64,000 nt of DNA from a virus (Duplodnaviria > Heunggongvirae > Uroviricota > Caudoviricetes), in IMG/VR virus record IMGVR_UViG_3300035498_002028. One strand, 5' to 3'. This document shows positions 13,684 to 48,332 of the stretch, piece by piece. The translations under genes and the position numbers were made by a program. The first letter of the stretch is position 1. Every line of letters starts with the position of its first letter. The notes under the pieces are model-generated. The model saw only the letters and a list, made by a program, of their open reading frames with translations. It was not told where the DNA came from and ran no database searches.

Positions 13684-14736
13684 TTATTCAGTTTCAGTTT
13701 CTTCTTCGTCTGTTTTGAAGAATTCATCCCATGCAGCAAGTAACTCTTCGTTTCGTCTTGCAATATTTACTGCCTTTGCTGAGCCACCCTTGACCGTATC
13801 GTTGTAAATTGACGAAATGCTTGCCCCATCTGCCACATCGTAGAAATTGATAAAGAACTTGGTAAGCATGTCAGTGCTGATATTTTCGTCAAGTGCTTTT
13901 TTCACGAATGGTACAAACGAAATAAGGTGTGTCTCAGAAGCCAACTTCTTGCGCATAGCTCTTACCTTTGCCTTGTCATCAAACTGCTCTGCAAGATTCA
14001 TATAGACATTCTTCAATTCATCAAGCACCTTGTTAAGCTCTTCGCGCTGCTCATCCGTAATGATTGTTTCCTGCATCGTGTGGTTGAATACCTTACTCTC
14101 GAATGAAACTTCTTCCTGGTTGAGCATACACCAAACTTTCATAACGAGTGGAATCTGCTTTCTGGTTTCAAAACCTTTATTGGTGATGATTGACTTGAAC
14201 AGCTCATGCTCGCCAATCTCTGTAACATTTTCGATATCAACGCAGCTTGCAATGTTGCGCTCCTTCGTTGACAATGGCTTACCATTATTTAACTTGCGGA
14301 ACAGTGTTGCCACCTGCGCTTCCGTAATCTGCTCATAATAGTAGATTGTCAAGCTATAGCTTAAAATAGCATCCTGCAATTCTTCCGGAAGTTCGCTGAA
14401 TTTCTTCCCAGAAATGTCAATGCTTACTACTCCATCGCCATTAAGCGGCTCGTACTCTACTTCCGGGAGTGGTGTAAGCTCATAATCCTCGTTGATATAC
14501 CCGGCGATAGCATTCATTCTCTGTTTACCATCCAGGAAATCATACACTCCATCAACGCGCCTTGCGTAGAATGGTGGAACCGGATAGTTCTCAATCAGTG
14601 AATGGATAAGGTCGCTCTTTCTAGCCTTCTCCCATACATAGCTTCTCTGGATGATATTTTTGAAGGAACATTTTCCCTTCTTAATCATCCCTGTAACCTG
14701 TTTACAGCTCCAACTAATACTCATTTTCTGCATCAT
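13684..14736 (-). CDS. DUF262 / ParB-like nucleotide-binding protein
   Basis: IQRSYVW, LIHSLIENYPVP, LDGKQR, FRKLNNGKPLS. Confidence 0.85.
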   Translation of the reverse strand: MMQKMSISWSCKQVTGMIKKGKCSFKNIIQRSYVWEKARKSDLIHSLIENYPVPPFYARRVDGVYDFLDGKQRMNAIAGYINEDYELTPLPEVEYEPLNGDGVVSIDISGKKFSELPEELQDAILSYSLTIYYYEQITEAQVATLFRKLNNGKPLSTKERNIASCVDIENVTEIGEHELFKSIITNKGFETRKQIPLVMKVWCMLNQEEVSFESKVFNHTMQETIITDEQREELNKVLDELKNVYMNLAEQFDDKAKVRAMRKKLASETHLISFVPFVKKALDENISTDMLTKFFINFYDVADGASISSIYNDTVKGGSAKAVNIARRNEELLAAWDEFFKTDEEETETE

Positions 14737-14847: not shown

Positions 14848-15051
14848 TTATTCAGCTATCCAGTTTTTGAATCCTTCTTTGAGGACAACATCCGGACAAT
14901 AGAACGTATCTTTTTCTTCCCACCCACCCTTATGCGCTGCGATAGAAATAATCTGTCCTATGCGCAGCTCCGGATGTCTTTGCTGAATAATAAATAAATC
15001 TCTTACAATATCGCCCATTTCATTTTCCTTTCTATTTTGCCAAACTTTCAA
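14848..15051 (-). CDS. Hypothetical protein
   Basis: 67-aa ORF overlapping the recombinase end. Confidence 0.55.
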   Translation of the reverse strand: MKVWQNRKENEMGDIVRDLFIIQQRHPELRIGQIISIAAHKGGWEEKDTFYCPDVVLKEGFKNWIAE

Positions 15052-15952
15052 TCATATCCATAATTGAAGTGATTGCATCAACATGAACCATTGCGTCCAT
15101 AGTATCGGCGTTTTCCTTTCCTGCTTCATATGCAGCCTTAACAATATCTCTCAAATCATTTGTATCAAGGCTTACAATGGGCTTGTCCGCTACTTGCGAA
15201 TACTCCTTATCTCCAACAATGTAATCACTGTAGAAATCACCCATATCATCATAATATTTGTCTACTTTCTGTTTTGTTAAACCAATATAATGCTTTGTTG
15301 TTTTTGTATCTGAATGATTGTAAATGGTTTGTAAAATCTCCATACTGTCATAATCACCAGGATGAAGCATTCTATTCATCATTCCAAAAAATTTTCTAGC
15401 ACTATGAGTTCCGATATTATATTCAATGCCAAGCTCTTTTGCAGCTCTCTTTAATGCTTTAAGATGACCACTTTCTGAAAGGATGGCTCCCTTATGCGTC
15501 CCGGAAAGCTGTAAAAAGATATAATTATTATACCCATTATCAGACGGATTGCAACCAGTGTTATCAATATATAACTCAATCGCTTCCCTCACAGCCTTAT
15601 TGATTCTCGGATTAGCCAACTTATCTGTCTTATCTTCCTGGATTTCGAGTATATCTCTTCTCATTTTCCCCGTTTCCGGTTCATAAATATTATACCATTT
15701 AAGTGATAATGTATCACCAACTCGTCTTGCCATATTGCAACCAAATGTAAGTAGAAGATAGTGTAACCAACTATTATTCTCTTTAAAGAAGTTAAGCATA
15801 CGTTTCGCATCCTCAATTTCATAAGGATATACTTCTGACTTCTTTCCCTTCTTCTTATTTGTTGACTGCTTTGGCTCATCCATCTTTATAAGTTGGATTA
15901 TGTTACCTTCTTCGGTCTTTGTGTAATTATAATTCTTTGCTAATGCTGCCAT
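15032..15952 (-). CDS. Tyrosine recombinase/integrase
   Basis: MARRVGDTLSL (R), EDKT (K), HSARK (HxxR), YNHS, TKHYIG (Y) all intact. Confidence 0.92.
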   Translation of the reverse strand: MAALAKNYNYTKTEEGNIIQLIKMDEPKQSTNKKKGKKSEVYPYEIEDAKRMLNFFKENNSWLHYLLLTFGCNMARRVGDTLSLKWYNIYEPETGKMRRDILEIQEDKTDKLANPRINKAVREAIELYIDNTGCNPSDNGYNNYIFLQLSGTHKGAILSESGHLKALKRAAKELGIEYNIGTHSARKFFGMMNRMLHPGDYDSMEILQTIYNHSDTKTTKHYIGLTKQKVDKYYDDMGDFYSDYIVGDKEYSQVADKPIVSLDTNDLRDIVKAAYEAGKENADTMDAMVHVDAITSIMDMIESLAK

Positions 15953-34513: not shown

Positions 34514-34987
34514 TTATTTGCAAGAAAATTTTTCCTTTACCAGCTCGATATTATCCGGATGGATATTGCCCGCCGCGATATCTTCCTGCAAGCTCTGTTG
34601 CAACCTTACAAAGAATTTTCCTAATGCCTTGATAATCTTCTCTGCATCTCCCTTGGTTTTCCTGTAGCTCAACTGGCGATAATCGCAGTACAAATTTTTA
34701 TTCTCCGGCTTTATCTTGTAAGTCCTGCTAGTTGCTTCCATGATAAGTTCCTGCGGCAGCTCATCCTCTTCCTGGTTGAAATCATCCGGCAAAGAGATTA
34801 TAAAACCAATTGAAAACATATCATTGCTCATAATCCTATGCGATACCTCTTCGATTTTTCCTGCGAGATGGCAGTCGATAGTGATGCTTTTTCCCAAACA
34901 TCTGTATACCATAACATTGCAAATGCTGTTCGGTAAGATTTTCCTATACTCATCCTGTACTCTCTCTTTAAACTCTGCGAACTTCAT
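34514..34987 (-). CDS. Hypothetical early protein
   Basis: 157-aa ORF after operator promoter. Confidence 0.7.
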   Translation of the reverse strand: MKFAEFKERVQDEYRKILPNSICNVMVYRCLGKSITIDCHLAGKIEEVSHRIMSNDMFSIGFIISLPDDFNQEEDELPQELIMEATSRTYKIKPENKNLYCDYRQLSYRKTKGDAEKIIKALGKFFVRLQQSLQEDIAAGNIHPDNIELVKEKFSCK

Positions 34988-35107
34988 AGCATAACCTCCA
35001 TATTTTCCTATTGATTAGTAACTCATTTACTATATATAATATACCATAGAACTATCCTATTGTCAATACTTTTTCTGTATTATTTTTAATTTTTTCCTAT
35101 AATATAT

Positions 35108-35770
35108 CTAATCTTCCTTGAAAAATCCTGCTTCTGCTAACAGCTGCAAATTTTCCTTTAGATTATCGCTCATAAATTCCGGTTCAGAAATCCCCTTGTA
35201 AATTTCCTCCATGTCCTCCATGAGCGCCCCATATGCAAAGTAATTATCTGATACCAGGTTGAAATTTTCCTTTTCATACATGATAACGCACATGCTCTCG
35301 TCACACTCTCCCTCATCCAGATAGTAGACAAAATTTCCTTTAATGAGTGCCAGGTTGTATGTTGATTCTGTGGTTTTTCCTATAACAGTCCTCGGATATT
35401 CTACTATTTTTTCCTCATATACTTCCTTAGATTTTCCTCTATAAAGCATGGTATTTTCCTCTATAGGAACTCCGCGATAGAATCCGACAACCGCAAGGCT
35501 GCACAATTCTCCTGTCCGGAAAGTTTTCTCCATGATAAACGTCATATCTTCTTGCTCTGCGTACACTGTGTATACAGATTTTTCCTCTTTTCCAACCTCT
35601 TCTAAGCATCCATGTTTTCCTGTATTATTCAACAGAAAACCAGCAAAATCATCCTCTACCTCTTCCGGATTTTCCTTTTTCGCCTGCTCGTAAATCCTTT
35701 TGAGCTGCTTTGTCGTGTACAATTTTCCTGTTTCAGTCCCTTTATATACCATAATTTTCCTCCTGTTCAA
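35108..35770 (-). CDS. Hypothetical early protein
   Basis: 220-aa ORF; probable start MVYK after GGAGG. Confidence 0.7.
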   Translation of the reverse strand: MNRRKIMVYKGTETGKLYTTKQLKRIYEQAKKENPEEVEDDFAGFLLNNTGKHGCLEEVGKEEKSVYTVYAEQEDMTFIMEKTFRTGELCSLAVVGFYRGVPIEENTMLYRGKSKEVYEEKIVEYPRTVIGKTTESTYNLALIKGNFVYYLDEGECDESMCVIMYEKENFNLVSDNYFAYGALMEDMEEIYKGISEPEFMSDNLKENLQLLAEAGFFKED

Positions 35771-35845
35771 GTCGATTTTTTCCTATGAAAACGGTGCGCC
35801 CTGCATCCTCCTGTTTCAGATGTGAGCGCGCCGATTCGATTTTTC

Positions 35846-36055
35846 CTACTTCACCATCCATTTATACTCTGGATTTTCCTGCATGAACTTCCTGGCTTCC
35901 TCTTCGGTTTTGAAAAAATCCGTACACCTATCAAGTTCAAGTTTTCCTTTGCTTGTCTCTGTTTTTTCCTCTACGACCTTACAAGTGCAAGCCATAAAAC
36001 GCTCTCCGCACTTGTATGGAATCGTGTTTTCCGGTACTCTCGTGATAATTTTCAT
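35846..36055 (-). CDS. Hypothetical early protein
   Basis: ORF with AGGAGG RBS. Confidence 0.65.
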   Translation of the reverse strand: MKIITRVPENTIPYKCGERFMACTCKVVEEKTETSKGKLELDRCTDFFKTEEEARKFMQENPEYKWMVK

Positions 36056-36069
36056 CTGAATTTTCCTCC

Positions 36070-36390
36070 TTACATCCAGCCATTACGCTTCCAAATTTTC
36101 TTTTCCCATGCCGCTATATCCACCTTTATGGTATTTTCCTCAATGGAAATATACTCTTTTCCGTATAATCCCATAGCCATATCCAGATTTTCCGGCGTGT
36201 TTTCCTCTTCCATCTTGATGAAAAAAGGAATCTTGCTATTCTTATCCTTCGTCACTTTTTCCTCATACAGCGCCTTATAAGGCGTGTCCAGGCTATCAAA
36301 AAATTCCTCTGCCGCTGACAGATTGCAAAACACTTTTCCGTCATCGTGTTCGCTGCTTCCATCATCCCAATCAACTACATATTTTCCCAT
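36070..36390 (-). CDS. Hypothetical early protein
   Basis: ORF with GGAGG RBS. Confidence 0.65.
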   Translation of the reverse strand: MGKYVVDWDDGSSEHDDGKVFCNLSAAEEFFDSLDTPYKALYEEKVTKDKNSKIPFFIKMEEENTPENLDMAMGLYGKEYISIEENTIKVDIAAWEKKIWKRNGWM

Positions 36391-36403
36391 AAAAATTTCC
36401 TCC

Positions 36404-36769
36404 CTAATATCCGTAATGCAATACTTCTAAGCATTCCCACTGTTCCGGATTGAATCCTTTCAAAAGACCGTATAACGGCGCTAAACGCCTATAATCGTCA
36501 TGCTTCATGTTTTCCTCTAACCATCCAACAACTGTCTGGATGTCCGCGGACTTGATGTGCGCCCCGTAGCAATCCGTATCCGTTTCTTCCTCTGTATGCG
36601 GCTTAAAGATTTTATAGTCGATATCCTTCGTGAACAATTTCGGAAAATCTGAATCCATTTTGCTCATCTTGATATCGGCTATCCGCTCGGCGTATACCCA
36701 TTTCTCCATCCCGTTTTTAAGCAAATGTCTGTTCACATTTACTACGATAACTCTGCTCTCATATCCCAT
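36404..36769 (-). CDS. Hypothetical early protein
   Basis: ORF with GGAGG RBS. Confidence 0.7.
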   Translation of the reverse strand: MGYESRVIVVNVNRHLLKNGMEKWVYAERIADIKMSKMDSDFPKLFTKDIDYKIFKPHTEEETDTDCYGAHIKSADIQTVVGWLEENMKHDDYRRLAPLYGLLKGFNPEQWECLEVLHYGY

Positions 36770-36790: not shown

Positions 36791-36862
36791 CTACAGCCTG
36801 TCTCATCAGTGCCAGGCGGCTAGTCACTGGCAGATGCCCTTCCGGGCATTTCGACTATACAA
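36791..36862 (-). ncRNA. Hammerhead ribozyme (type II, stem II open)
   Basis: Minus strand: UAUAGUC-GAAA-UGCCC(ggaa)GGGCA-UC^-UGCCAG(N11)CUGGCA-CUGAUGA-GAC..CUGUA. Complete core; predicted cut 36833/36832. Confidence 0.93.
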
Positions 36863-37157
36863 GAAGTCGTTTGATGTCTCTTTTCAGATTTTCAAACATC
36901 CGTATCTGGTTTTCAAGCTCGCGGGCGTTGGCTTCGTATTTGGACAGTAGAACTTTAAGCGATTCCGTCTCAGCTTCAAGCTCTTCTATTCTCCTGGCTC
37001 TGATTCTACACAATCTCTGTACGCCGCCATTCTTGACCCATCGCTTACAAAATGCGTCCTTGTCAATGTCGCATCCCATATACTCGGATTCGATATCAGC
37101 GTATTCGGCTGCTGTCGGCTCAAATTTCGTCCTTTCGATAAACTCACTCATCATCAT
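36855..37157 (-). CDS. Hypothetical early protein with coiled-coil C-terminus, flanked by ribozymes
   Basis: 100-aa ORF, RBS AAGGAGG; TAG stop lies inside hammerhead stem II. Confidence 0.75.
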   Translation of the reverse strand: MMMSEFIERTKFEPTAAEYADIESEYMGCDIDKDAFCKRWVKNGGVQRLCRIRARRIEELEAETESLKVLLSKYEANARELENQIRMFENLKRDIKRLLV

Positions 37158-37185
37158 AGACTTATCCTCCTTTTATTCCTGCATC

Positions 37186-37241
37186 CCAGGCTTGCAACTG
37201 GCTCTGGCTGCATTACCGCCCATTCCGGGCGTTGCTCTGCA
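37186..37241 (-). ncRNA. Twister ribozyme (type P5 permutation)
   Basis: UGCA-GA-GCA-A-CGCCC(ggaau)GGGCG-GU^AA-UGCA-GC-CAGAG-CCAG-U-UGC-AA-GC-CUGG. P1, P2, P4 and both pseudoknots pair; predicted cut 37215/37214. Confidence 0.9.
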
Positions 37242-37362
37242 TCTTTTCGGCTTATTATAAAATTGTCCAGACCGTCAATCTATACGCCATCTTCACCGGG
37301 AAAAACCGTCTCAGTTTCGCGTATCTGCTGTTGAACTTGTCAAACATCGCACTACCTCCTTC

Positions 37363-37671
37363 TTAGAAAAATCTGCTGTTGCTCTCACAAGTTTCGATTG
37401 TGACTGCTTCCTGGTTTAAAGCTGTTTTGAGCTGTCCGGCTGCTTTTTCGATGTCCTCTGTTGTACTTCCATAGATTACACATACAAGTGTCGGCTCAAT
37501 TACGATTGTACCGTCATCATGTGTATAAACTCCGGTTCCCTCTGTGATTGTAGCGCCGCCCGTTGTCGCTGCGAAAATGTTCGCTGCTACCTTGTAAGCA
37601 TCCAGCGTTGTTACTTCCTGGCGCTTCGTATCCTGGTCTAATAATCCTACACACATAGTTGTTTTTGTCAT
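37363..37671 (-). CDS. DUF3574-like small protein
   Basis: VGLLDQD...GATITEGTGVYTHDDGTIVIEPT. Confidence 0.6.
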   Translation of the reverse strand: MTKTTMCVGLLDQDTKRQEVTTLDAYKVAANIFAATTGGATITEGTGVYTHDDGTIVIEPTLVCVIYGSTTEDIEKAAGQLKTALNQEAVTIETCESNSRFF

Positions 37672-37708
37672 GGTTCAATCCTCCATATTTTTTGATATTT
37701 GCTATGGC

Positions 37709-37765
37709 GGCGACTTGGAACGCCCTGCCTGGTAGCATTACAGCCCCGGAGGGCTGTCCTCTGCT
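37709..37765 (-). ncRNA. Twister ribozyme (type P5 permutation)
   Basis: AGCA-GA-GGA-CAGCCC(uccg)GGGCUG-U^AA-UGCU-AC-CAGGCAG-GGCG-U-UCC-AA-GU-CGCC. Compensatory changes versus the other twister in P2, P4, T1, T2; predicted cut 37740/37739. Confidence 0.9.
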
Positions 37766-37790: not shown

Positions 37791-38045
37791 TTACATTGCA
37801 ACCGCACCCTTGCCTACAATCGCCTTCATATCATAATAGGTTAAGTCCGGTGCATATTCTTTTAAAAACCATGCCATCTGTTTTCTAGTTGTCGCGCTAT
37901 AGGTTCCGGTGCATTCCACAAATCTTTTTCCACCTTACCGCCAGATGCTTATAACGCGTGTTGTGTAGCTGATGAAGTCCAGTCTATCGCCCTTTACAAC
38001 GTGACACTGTGCGCTTGCGTGCTCTCTTAATTTAGTTTTACTCAT
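37791..38045 (-). pseudogene. First early ORF, interrupted by in-frame TAA
   Basis: 85-codon frame MSKTKL...ISYTTRVISIWR*GGKRFVECTGTYSATTRKQM...; TAA at 37935-37937 (codon 37); RBS GGAGG. Confidence 0.7.
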
Positions 38046-38641
38046 AATAGATAACCTCCTTGATTTTGCTTGCCTTGTTTTGTTGTACTCATATTAACAT
38101 AGTGTTTAGAGCTTGTCAATACCTTTTTTATTATTTTTTTAATCTTTTTTGTATTGACTATGTAGCCCGGTAAACAAGCTATATTGTGTAACTCATTTAC
38201 TAATCACATGATACTATTATATACTTTATATGTCAATAGTTTTTTTGAATTATTTTTAAATTTATTGAAAAACCTTGATTTTGTGGGCGTTTTAGGCGTT
38301 TTTATTTTTGCGGCGTTTGCGTTCCTTCTATATAATGCAAAAAATATGTATATCAGAACTTGACAAGCTGCGATATTATCGGCGCTATTGTGTCGGGTGG
38401 TTCTATGTGGTATTATATGACTTGTGAACTGTCGCAAGGTATCCGGCTATTTTTGGCGCTATGTAGTTTTGATTACTACGTGTGATAGTTTTTGATATTA
38501 TGTTATGTGTATGTAGTTTTTAAAACTATGTTGTGTGATATTGATATTATAACATGTGGTTATTGATGGTATAATGTAGGGTTATGGGAACAATTTAAAA
38601 TAATTTTTTAAACTATGTCAAGTTATCACGCCGATAATGCA

Positions 38642-46131: not shown

Positions 46132-46135
46132 TTAT

Positions 46136-46208
46136 TGGAGTATAACTCAGTTGGTAGAGTACCTGTCTGATACACAGGTTGTCAGCAGTTCAAATCTGCT
46201 TGCTCCAA
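46136..46208 (+). tRNA. tRNA-Ile(GAU)
   Basis: CCTGT-CTGATAC-ACAGG. Confidence 0.9.
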
Positions 46209-46252
46209 TTATCAATATGGCATATGTCATATAGGTTATCCCTAGACTAAAG

Positions 46253-47713
46253 TTGTATGGGAGGATATGTATGGGAAAGAAGAAAATAAAGAATGATGGG
46301 ATTTACTTTACCGGAGAATCAGCAAATGATGTGACTGGTTCACAATATGTTGTAAAATTCGGAAACTATCAATGTCTTTTAGAATGTGGACTACACCAAT
46401 CAAAAAGTAATAGTTTTCTTGATTCATATAGAATCAACTCTGCAAAGTTTAAATTTAAACCAGCAGATATAGACTTTTTATTTGTTGCACATCCGCATAT
46501 AGACCATTGTGGTCTTATTCCAAGATTGGTAAAAGAAGGTTTTCATGGGGAAATTATTACTACACAGAAAACGGCGATGATTATGAAGCCGCTTTTACTG
46601 AACTCCTGCTATATTGTTGAAGATGAAGCAAGAGTATTATCAAAACGCTATAGCAGAGAATATAAACCATTATACACTGAGGAAGATGTATATAATACAC
46701 TTGACCTGATTTGCACATATGATAATTATGATGAAATCATAGAACTCAATGAAGTTGTAAGTTTTCAATGGTTAAAGAACGCACATTGTATTGGTGCTGC
46801 TCAATTGCAGCTTATATTATCTGATGAGCGAAAAACAAAAAAGATTTTATATACTTCTGATATTGGTGCTTTGGAAACAAATAATCATTATTTAGAGAAT
46901 ACTGAGATTCCGGCAATGTTTAATGACGTTGTTATTATGGAATCTACATATGGAAGTTCTGCAAGAATAAACAAGAAAACCAGAAATTTTGACATTGAAC
47001 ATTTGCGTGTTGCTATCAACACAGTTATAGAACGCAAAGGAAGTGTCATATTGCCGTGCTTTAGTTTTAGCAGAACTCAAGAACTTTTAACAACATTATA
47101 TGATATTTTTGGTAACGATAATAATTTCAATGTACCAATTATTGTTGATTCAAAGTTGAGTTGCGAAATTTGTGATTTATATAATGAATTATTAGATGGC
47201 TCAGATTTTGAATATTGGAATAATGTGTACACATGGAAAAATGTAAAATATATATCTGAAAAGACTGATTCACAGGCTTGTCTTTCTGATAATCAACCAA
47301 AGATAATTATTTCTTCATCTGGTTTTTGTACAAATGGTAGGATTATTAACTATCTACAAAAATATTTAAAAGATGTGAATAGTATGATTATCTTCTCTGG
47401 TTATATTGGTGACAATCCTTCTTATCTATCATATCGGATAAAAAATTATCGTGACCATAAAGATATTAAAATTAACAAAGAACAGATTCCAAATAAAGCT
47501 GATTGTATTACGCTTTCTACATTTAGTAGCCATGCTGGACATAATGACTTAATTAAATATGGTAGTTCATTACTAACAAATAAATTAGTCCTAGTGCATG
47601 GCTCAGAAGAAAGCAAACTTTGTTTGGCAGACAAATTAAAAGATGCTATATCCAAAAATAATAAGACTTATAAGGTGATTCCGTCTGTAAAGGATATGGT
47701 TATACATTTGTAG
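46253..47713 (+). CDS. Metallo-beta-lactamase/beta-CASP ribonuclease
   Basis: VTGS, ECG, HPHIDHCG, AHCIGA, YTSDIG, MESTYG, FSFSRTQEL, SSHA, LVHG; start probably MGKKK. Confidence 0.92.
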   Translation: MYGRICMGKKKIKNDGIYFTGESANDVTGSQYVVKFGNYQCLLECGLHQSKSNSFLDSYRINSAKFKFKPADIDFLFVAHPHIDHCGLIPRLVKEGFHGEIITTQKTAMIMKPLLLNSCYIVEDEARVLSKRYSREYKPLYTEEDVYNTLDLICTYDNYDEIIELNEVVSFQWLKNAHCIGAAQLQLILSDERKTKKILYTSDIGALETNNHYLENTEIPAMFNDVVIMESTYGSSARINKKTRNFDIEHLRVAINTVIERKGSVILPCFSFSRTQELLTTLYDIFGNDNNFNVPIIVDSKLSCEICDLYNELLDGSDFEYWNNVYTWKNVKYISEKTDSQACLSDNQPKIIISSSGFCTNGRIINYLQKYLKDVNSMIIFSGYIGDNPSYLSYRIKNYRDHKDIKINKEQIPNKADCITLSTFSSHAGHNDLIKYGSSLLTNKLVLVHGSEESKLCLADKLKDAISKNNKTYKVIPSVKDMVIHL

Positions 47714-47726
47714 GAGGTAAAAAGAT

Positions 47727-48332
47727 ATGGAGAATGCTAAAGAAGTATTTAATTACTGCTTAGAGGACAAATATGAAATTGAAGATGATAAGTTGCGTAG
47801 AATTTATATCAATTACGGAATTGATGATGATGTAATTGATACAGCTGTCTATCAGATTTTAAAATATAACAGAATGGATAAGGGCAAACCTCGTGAAGAT
47901 AGAGAGCCAATTATTGTCTACATTAACTCACCAGGGGGAAGTGTAACTTCTGGATATGGCTTAATTGATGCTATCATGACAAGTGAAACTCCTGTATATA
48001 CTGTAAATTTAGCAGAATGTTATTCTATGGGATTTTTAATTTTCCTTGCCGGAGAAAAGCGTTTTGGAATGCCAAGCTCTACATATTTATGTCATGACGG
48101 AAGTTCTATGGCATGGGATTCTATGAGCAAGTTAAAAGATAGAATGGAATTTGAAACAGGACAGATGGAGAAACACACAAAAGAATATGTGTTATCTCGT
48201 ACAACAATTTCAAATGAGTTATATGATAATAAATATAGAACAGAATGGTATATGTATCCAGAGGAAGCAAAATCAAACGGTGTAGTTACTCATATCGTTG
48301 GAAAAGATTGCAAAATGGATGACATTTTATAA
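47727..48332 (+). CDS. clpP: ClpP-family protease subunit
   Basis: INSPGGSV..G, CYSMG (Ser), LCHD (His). Confidence 0.85.
   Translation: MENAKEVFNYCLEDKYEIEDDKLRRIYINYGIDDDVIDTAVYQILKYNRMDKGKPREDREPIIVYINSPGGSVTSGYGLIDAIMTSETPVYTVNLAECYSMGFLIFLAGEKRFGMPSSTYLCHDGSSMAWDSMSKLKDRMEFETGQMEKHTKEYVLSRTTISNELYDNKYRTEWYMYPEEAKSNGVVTHIVGKDCKMDDIL

Follow-up and report, generated by a model that had tools for sequence, protein, structure and literature searches.

Two Twister-P5 ribozymes and a probable type II hammerhead between the first leftward genes of a large tailed phage: a candidate case of RNA punctuation

Self-cleaving twister ribozymes, reportedly described as a class by Roth and colleagues in 2014, and hammerhead ribozymes are present in their thousands in bacterial and phage DNA, where their role is formally unproven. 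In prophages, multiple hammerheads flank single genes (Perreault et al., 2011, Fig. 3, PMC3088659), and for such clusters the processing of long phage transcripts into single-gene mRNAs was proposed (PMC3088659), an idea restated in a 2019 review, which calls it unproven and asks for more work (PMC6765202). The co-occurrence of twisters, hammerheads and phage genes also underlay the discovery of the pistol, hatchet and twister-sister ribozymes, in the work of Weinberg et al. (2015), as reported in PMC4604425. Here we analyse a 64-kb stretch of DNA from a large tailed phage (IMG/VR record IMGVR_UViG_3300035498_002028; hereafter the window), in which two type P5 twisters and a probable type II hammerhead lie within 1 kb on the coding strand and bracket ORF B+C and ORF D. 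As in the prophage clusters, same-strand ribozymes bracket varied small genes in DNA of Firmicute phages (a likely assignment here, to a gut Firmicute), and, since both layout and idea have been published since 2011, the locus adds a well-documented case to a kind already known. It differs from these clusters in that one gene, ORF B, is available both with ribozymes and without, relatives having a promoter and a terminator instead; this comparison, which the published hypothesis lacked, provides circumstantial support for it. The expectations of specialists are unchanged, and the value of the locus is that of supporting evidence and of an experimental handle: it is a compact test case, in which the natural variants of ORF B indicate what the ribozymes stand in for.

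In phage T7, the early polycistronic mRNA is cut between its cistrons by RNase III, which leaves hairpin-capped 3' ends on single-gene mRNAs. The host RNase III is needed there, whereas a ribozyme cut in the window would need no protein and would have a different end chemistry. Haloviruses HF1 and HF2 carry a hammerhead, HHphage, upstream of the first gene of an early polycistron, with a mapped 5' end near the cleavage site (PMC3088659); both cases share a ribozyme in a (here presumed) early transcript, few to tens of nucleotides before a start codon, although HF1 and HF2 are archaeal viruses with one variant hammerhead at the 5' end and the window contains an intercistronic series. The glmS ribozyme of Bacillus subtilis also self-cleaves in a Firmicute mRNA leader and leaves a 5'-hydroxyl (5'-OH) on the coding fragment, but it is ligand-dependent and destabilises its mRNA via RNase J1, while the ribozymes of the window are without known ligand. 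For the present locus, we hypothesize, with a probability of roughly 0.55, that the three ribozymes punctuate one transcript into single-gene or short-block mRNAs, the variants of this reading being counted separately.

The entire window was scanned against 4227 Rfam families, including Twister-P5 (RF02684), whose gathering score is 37.6 bits. At gathering thresholds, the matches were ten tRNAs and two twisters, A and B (Table 1), with no other ribozyme match, and at E<=1 no ribozyme class beyond those of the three elements described here was found in all 64 kb besides the tRNAs. Both alignments are full-length (model positions 1-58) and contain P1, P2 and P4 in the P5-open permutation, with loops closing P1 and P4, the conserved GCAGAG, GUAAUGC and CAAG blocks, and the U^A cleavage dinucleotide within GUAAUGC. 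Helices, pseudoknots, conserved blocks and cleavage dinucleotide are the same as in the described family, the scores exceed the curated cut-off, and we noticed no structural difference; what is new are the sequences and the presence of three paralogue classes in one phage lineage. As read from the alignments, cleavage is predicted at 37740/37739 in twister A, 51 nt past the stop codon of ORF A and 68 nt ahead of the ATG of ORF B, and at 37215/37214 in twister B, where the distances are 40 nt from the stop codon of ORF C and 57 nt to the ATG of ORF D. An earlier note on this DNA, made from its letters, had placed two type P5 twisters at 37186-37241 and 37709-37765, exactly where Rfam finds them, and had named the same cleavage sites, which follow from the alignments, as does its third site, 36833/32, in the hammerhead.

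Eight distinct twisters, taken from the window and from the relatives L051 and L056, were aligned for analysis of covariation. They form three paralogue classes that are just ~60% alike, although CAGAG, GTAATG and CAAG are invariant in 8/8. Paired bases occupy 95.8% of the alignment cells and 9 of the 15 pairs have changed on both sides; the observed covariation score was reached by 0/500 shuffles, and pairing falls to 23-35% when the partners are slid by 1 to 3 columns. The T1 (2 bp) and T2 (3 bp) pseudoknots, whose pairs are ignored in scoring by the Rfam Twister-P5 covariance model, are 100% paired, T2 occurring in four forms (GGA/UCC, GCA/UGC, GUA/UAC and GUG/CAC), and so are P2, which has two-sided changes in 2 pairs, and P4, which has them in 3; the outermost P1 position reads A.G in classes 2 and 3. 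In the L051 orthologue of twister B, T2 and two P4 pairs show compensatory changes relative to the window copy. Since helices and pseudoknots are kept by compensatory change across the three classes, the alignment argues for selection on the catalytic structure, and both twisters are predicted to be functional self-cleaving ribozymes. The pairings listed in the earlier note for A and B (T2 GGA/UCC versus GCA/UGC, T1 AC/GU versus GC/GC, P4 GGCG/CGCC versus CCAG/CUGG) are all present, and its observation that the sequences differ while every pairing is kept extends to the eight twisters and three classes. A chimeric twister, made of the 3' half of A and the 5' half of B so that the two ends of the fragment would meet, was checked by eye and rejected; it pairs at 3/4 positions of P2 and 2/3 of T2 in the window, and more poorly in L051.

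The third element is very probably a real hammerhead, as judged from its core and helices. The earlier note had proposed a type II hammerhead near 36791-36862, where the covariance model for this type (RF02276) does find a match, with E-values of 3.6e-5 in a 2.5-kb region and 9e-4 for the 64-kb window against all 4227 families. No part of the core is missing (CUGAUGA at 36809-36803, CGAAA at 36853-36849, and C17), the helix-closing pairs are standard (G10.1-C11.1, A15.1-U16.1 and U1.1-A2.1), stems I and III are closed and of 6 bp each, and the open stem II has 3 bp (GAC/GUC). The cleavage triplet is AUC, with AUC^U at 36835-36832, so that the predicted cut, 36833/36832, falls 22 nt past the stop codon of ORF D and 63 nt ahead of the ATG of ORF E. 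In the majority of type II hammerheads, loop I forms a pseudoknot with the 3' tail, just 3' of stem II (Perreault et al., 2011, PMC3088659), and in the window loop I (UAGCC) pairs with the tail (GGCUG) through four Watson-Crick pairs and one G-U pair; the covariance model does not score this pseudoknot, and a match of that size has a random chance of roughly 1 in 10, which makes it modest support. Topology, full core, short stem II and a 4-5 bp loop I/tail pseudoknot are shared with the described type II hammerheads (RF02276, PMC3088659), while the pseudoknot strands are swapped relative to the Rfam consensus (GGCU in the tail, AGCC in the loop). A strict type II descriptor, which demanded the core, standard helix-closing pairs, closed stems I and III and an open stem II, matched this site alone on both strands of 354 kb (the window plus the fetched loci), and the same scan found no orthologue of the hammerhead in the fetched loci.

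A hammerhead-like element was observed in L051 (4146-4236, plus strand, the same as L054:1175-1265, minus strand), between two ORFs and ~0.7 kb downstream of the third twister. It has an open stem I and contains CUGAUGAG, CGAAA and UC, and it scores 36.5 bits against RAGATH-1-hammerhead, whose cut-off is 56.3. The L051 operon may mix twisters with a hammerhead as well.

All three ribozymes are on the coding strand and intercistronic, each in a gap between ORFs with good Shine-Dalgarno sites, with the qualification that the 5' strand of the hammerhead overlaps the ORF D TAG stop at 36857-36855. They lie 0.3-1.4 kb downstream of P1 and P2, the two best sigma-70-like sites adjoining the divergent junction, in keeping with the two junction-proximal promoters within 1.5 kb that the earlier note had reported. 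P2 is about 40 nt from the ORF A start and is kept in L051 (2024-2052). On the coding strand between 38091 and 35100, a consensus scan found no promoter-like site above 9/12 and a terminator scan found a single weak terminator-like site. With strong promoters upstream, none above 9/12 inside and one weak terminator, a single leftward transcription unit from ~38200 to ~35100, comprising ORFs A to H, is plausible. As for the 'earliest' polycistron of the earlier note, the unit does adjoin the divergent junction and consists of small ORFs without assigned function, while its early timing is itself a suggestion drawn from that position and gene content.

Relatives of the operon were retrieved via neighbouring genes and by sequence pattern: L051 and L054 represent one IMG/VR contig, L055, L056 and L057 are short metagenome contigs, and L065 is a contig of a Lachnospiraceae metagenome-assembled genome (MAG). 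Three Twister-P5 ribozymes each were found in the syntenic region of L051/L054, L056 and L057, two in L055, whose contig ends before the first junction, and one, of 61.1 bits, in L065. ORF B homologues, about 80-89% identical in amino-acid sequence, occur in several contexts, of which seven were compared. In L052, L053, L063 and L064, ORF B is a stand-alone promoter-gene-terminator unit with no ribozyme, a promoter (11/12) lying ~55 nt upstream and an intrinsic terminator (9-11 bp stem and T-run) about 14-30 nt past the stop. In the window, L051, L056, L057 and L065 that promoter is absent and a Twister-P5 is located upstream of ORF B, of class 1 in the window and the L051-type lineage and of another class in L065. 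In L051 and L055-L057, the second twister begins at the base after the ORF B stop, where L052 has its terminator. The similarity between window and L052 DNA starts only 17 nt before the ORF B ATG, so that ribosome-binding site and gene are shared and the punctuation is exchanged. The exchange of promoter and terminator for twisters around one gene gives circumstantial support to RNA punctuation.

The same comparison bears on the possibility that the ribozymes are selfish or neutral, that is, small elements which, of no benefit to the phage, spread or are retained at the gene junctions of mosaic phages, or in some cases inactive relics, a possibility which we consider improbable. Their distribution is indeed patchy. 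An exact-pattern search for orthologous twisters retrieved one IMG/VR contig and three short metagenome contigs only, and there is no twister in the complete records of L052, L053, MT835469 and Enterocloster phage CB457P1. For one element, the middle twister, the difference is a clean presence/absence of ~73 nt, located after the ORF B stop and ahead of the ribosome-binding site of ORF C: L051 has it, and the window and L065 do not. Twister B sits at a synteny break, where ORFs A, B and C are common to L051 and the gene after the twister is unrelated; twister B and the leader up to the start codon are 77% conserved between window and L051. The ORF D family contained no twister in 50 relatives (custom model R1) and gave no Rfam match in 17 sampled, and a ribozyme linkage to ORF D was rejected on these grounds. 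Against an existence without benefit stand the compensatory changes, which keep every helix and both pseudoknots in three classes and several lineages, the constant location of the ribozymes on the coding strand, between cistrons and never within an ORF, and the fact that they replace promoter and terminator rather than adding to them.

If the ribozymes act as RNA punctuation, the RNA would fold and cut itself as RNA polymerase passes each of them (37740/39, 37215/14 and 36833/32), and four products would result: ORF A (about 0.35-0.46 kb), ORF B+C (525 nt), ORF D (382 nt) and ORFs E-H (about 1.7 kb). A type P5 twister is cut after P1, so that the upstream RNA ends in a closed P1 hairpin with a 2',3'-cyclic phosphate, and cleavage of a type II hammerhead leaves an upstream RNA that ends in a closed stem III hairpin. 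Each upstream product would thus end in a closed, G+C-rich hairpin resembling a terminator, formed by P1 of the twisters or stem III of the hammerhead and bearing a 2',3'-cyclic phosphate; the hairpin may protect the 3' end. The downstream products would start 68, 57 and 63 nt before their start codons, with the Shine-Dalgarno sequence left free; in the minimum-energy folds of all three predicted leaders it is unpaired, and no sequestration was seen, the folds themselves not being significant. After cleavage, the two halves would be in contact through P2, T1 and T2 in the twisters (9 bp), and through stem II (3 bp) and the loop I/tail pseudoknot (4-5 bp) in the hammerhead; being joined by few base pairs (3-9), they should separate. 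In this way, the ribozymes would do on RNA what a promoter and a terminator do on DNA, namely delimit short mRNAs and uncouple neighbouring cistrons, with a presumed benefit to the phage.

The fate of such pieces depends on their ends. Cleavage by twisters and hammerheads leaves 5'-OH ends, as known from the chemistry of these families (PMC8782182), and the earlier note had reasoned that downstream mRNAs with this end escape the RppH/RNase J 5' decay of Firmicutes and would be stabilised. The hammerhead product has the 6-bp stem I at its very 5' end, which might impede a 5' exonuclease, as 5'-terminal stem-loops of B. subtilis mRNAs suggest; nevertheless, stabilisation is quite unlikely. The only studied Firmicute case shows the opposite, since the 5'-OH product of B. 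subtilis glmS is rapidly degraded by the 5'-3' exonuclease RNase J1 owing to its 5' hydroxyl, according to PMC3328962 and PMC11780869, both citing Collins et al. (2007), and a 2025 study keeps this view while adding a 5' trimming activity on such ends (PMC11780869). In addition, P4, the first stable family helix in the twister products, starts 13-16 nt from the 5' end, and the leader folds are no more stable than shuffles (z = -1.1, +0.15 and +0.5). The claim of escape from RNase J is therefore contradicted by the glmS precedent, and of the interpretation given in the earlier note, the protein-free cutting into separate mRNAs stands as the most likely reading, with comparative support, while the word 'stabilised' is unsupported.

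A destabilising effect on the downstream pieces, as a timer or gradient, is no less likely than their stabilisation. In that case, host RNase J or a β-CASP ribonuclease of the phage would degrade the 5'-OH pieces, and distal cistrons would be short-lived while proximal ones were kept by their 3' hairpins, resulting in a gradient or a temporal shut-off of the first genes. We judge this unlikely, although somewhat less so than the preceding alternatives: the glmS/RNase J1 precedent and the closed hairpin predicted at the end of each upstream product favour it, and the phage has its own protein with MBL, Beta-Casp and RMMBL domains (Table 1), whose best solved relatives are the ribonuclease TTHA0252 (E 9e-38), type VII CRISPR Cas14 and CPSF73, and which is predicted to be an RNA-processing nuclease of the phage; its NCBIfam matches to Cas14 and aCPSF1 are far under the cut-offs. 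However, no link connects this gene with the ribozyme RNAs, and it lies in the other arm of the genome, directly after tRNA-Ile (46135-46209), with a tRNA cluster on either side and a ClpP-like protease (47727-48332) encoded next downstream. In relatives, an ordinary promoter would drive ORF B, which gives no hint that instability is needed.

The end chemistry allows a further outcome, similar to the engineered Tornado system, in which host RtcB would join the ends of the 525-nt (ORF B+C) and 382-nt (ORF D) pieces into circular, exonuclease-resistant mRNAs. A 5'-OH and a 2',3'-cyclic phosphate are, as known for the family, the ends on which RtcB acts, and each piece is a complete gene with its own ribosome-binding site; still, we hold circularisation to be very improbable. 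The ends of the 382-nt piece pair with -11.6 kcal/mol, no better than the controls (-12.7 +/- 4.3); the other excised pieces gave higher end-pairing values, which are confounded by the G+C-rich ribozyme halves, the control not being composition-matched. No RtcB or other RNA ligase was found among roughly 50 window proteins scanned, although the host could supply one, and a search by Perreault et al. for circles or spliced forms among the products of clustered phage hammerheads was negative (PMC3088659). If true, such circles would be a natural counterpart of Tornado and would let the first gene products outlast the RNA decay of host and phage, including that by the phage's own β-CASP ribonuclease.

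Several points weigh against the proposal of RNA punctuation itself. The ribozymes are dispensable, as close relatives of the genes exist without them, and the twister that lies between ORF B and ORF C in L051 is missing from the window, where the two are co-cistronic. The 36.6 bits of the hammerhead are 0.4 bit below the gathering score of 37.0, so that the match falls short of the Rfam cut-off, and the minimum-energy fold favours an extended alternative stem II which would disturb the hammerhead core. The first cistron, ORF A, has a premature TAA, and the promoter and terminator assignments are consensus matches only. Finally, a 5'-OH end may attract RNase J, which makes the net effect on expression unpredictable.

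Table 1. Coordinates of ribozymes, promoter-like sites and genes in the 64-kb window.
Feature	Coordinates	Strand	Properties
Twister-P5 ribozyme A	37709..37765	(-)	paralogue class 1; 44.2 bits, E 6.1e-6 (whole window)
Twister-P5 ribozyme B	37186..37241	(-)	paralogue class 3; 48.6 bits, E 4.6e-7 (whole window)
Type II hammerhead (probable)	36792..36862	(-)	Hammerhead_II RF02276 match 36792-36856, 36.6 bits
Promoter-like site P1	38208..38236	(-)	TTGACA-17-TATCAT, 11/12; followed by 14-nt box AGTAAATGAGTTAC at 38201-38188
Promoter-like site P2	38091..38119	(-)	TTGACA-17-TAATAT with TG, 10/12
ORF A	37791..38045	(-)	84 codons; phrog_4264 match
ORF B	37363..37671	(-)	102 aa; weak matches to phrog_3543 and DUF3574; basis of the comparison of contexts
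ORF C	37255..37347	(-)	30 aa, basic; own GAAGGAGG ribosome-binding site
ORF D	36855..37157	(-)	100 aa; phrog_15742, unknown function
ORFs E, F, G, H	35108..36769	(-)	121, 106, 69 and ~214 aa; no family matches
β-CASP protein	46253-47713	(+)	486 aa; MBL, Beta-Casp and RMMBL domains

The window encodes terminase, portal and tRNA genes, which identify its source as a phage. Its rightward arm, from 39.7 kb, contains a replication-initiator-like protein, nucleases, the ten tRNAs, terminase and portal, and its leftward arm, from 38.0 kb, contains a long series of small ORFs without assigned function, followed by auxiliary genes (a clamp, NAD-pathway genes, a Thg1-like gene and a reverse transcriptase). 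The closest relative of the terminase, with 55% identity, is that of MT835469, an unverified human faecal phage, followed by those of phages of Lysinibacillus, Thomasclavelia and Bacillus (SPbeta-like), and gene relatives were found in Lachnospiraceae MAGs. Taken together, these relationships make a Firmicute host likely, an assignment that rests on MAG binning. Among cultured relatives, a blastn search against phages gave a single match, of 63 nt, between the P1 promoter region and Enterocloster phage CB457P1.

We also identified a 14-nt box, AGTAAATGAGTTAC, with a GTAA-N6-TTAC inverted repeat, after the -10 element of both the promoter at 38236 and that at 35066, the next strong promoter with a box on the coding strand (35066-35018, the promoter being 35066-35038). 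The box occurs in 13 copies on the minus strand between 14774 and 38201 (<=2 mismatches, versus 0.8 expected), for example at 38188-38201 and 35018-35031, and the examined copies sit just 3' of the -10 elements of strong promoters. Probably, the leftward-arm transcription units share it as an operator or as part of a conserved 5' leader, and its recurrence makes this arm look like a series of similarly controlled units, the first of which (ORFs A to H) contains all three ribozymes. A Lachnospiraceae MAG has a near copy of the box at L063:1453-1466, behind the promoter of its ORF B homologue.

In ORF A, the in-frame TAA is at 37937-37935, a codon that reads GAA (Glu) in the L051 and L056 homologues; the phrog_4264 match extends across this internal stop, and the segment beyond it is still 81% identical to the relatives. 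Recoding of the TAA was rejected: since the 10 tRNAs include no suppressor and relatives carry GAA at this position, the sequence points to a recent nonsense mutation or an assembly error. ORF C, which no ribozyme separates from ORF B in the window, is 48-55% conserved in L051/L056 and is also present in L065. ORFs E-H form the distal part of the ribozyme operon and end just short of the promoter and box at 35066-35018. Flanking the stand-alone ORF B of L052 (2270-2310 and 2860-3100), short inverted repeats of the form GTTTTT-S-AAAAC recur with ~30-45 nt spacing in DNA poor in ORFs, where they may serve as iterons or bind a regulator.

Apart from the ribozyme-bearing gaps, the operon has only one long gap, of ~93 nt, which is located between ORF G and ORF H (35753-35850, minus strand) and gave no Rfam match. 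Its predicted fold is a G+C-rich hairpin (z = -2.1) with UUUUCAU behind it, and the gap also holds a mini-ORF of 7 codons preceded by GGAGG; the hairpin may be a weak terminator or a processing hairpin. In ORF H and its flanks (34950-35900), AGGAAAA or GGAAAA is very frequent on the coding (minus) strand, in varied frames and in intergenic DNA. Further along the leftward arm, the minus-strand proteins encoded at 13684-14736 and 15032-15952 match GmrSD_N (PF03235, 1.1e-15) and phage integrase/tyrosine recombinase (PF00589, 4e-13), respectively, the latter pointing to a temperate lifestyle or a role as a resolvase.

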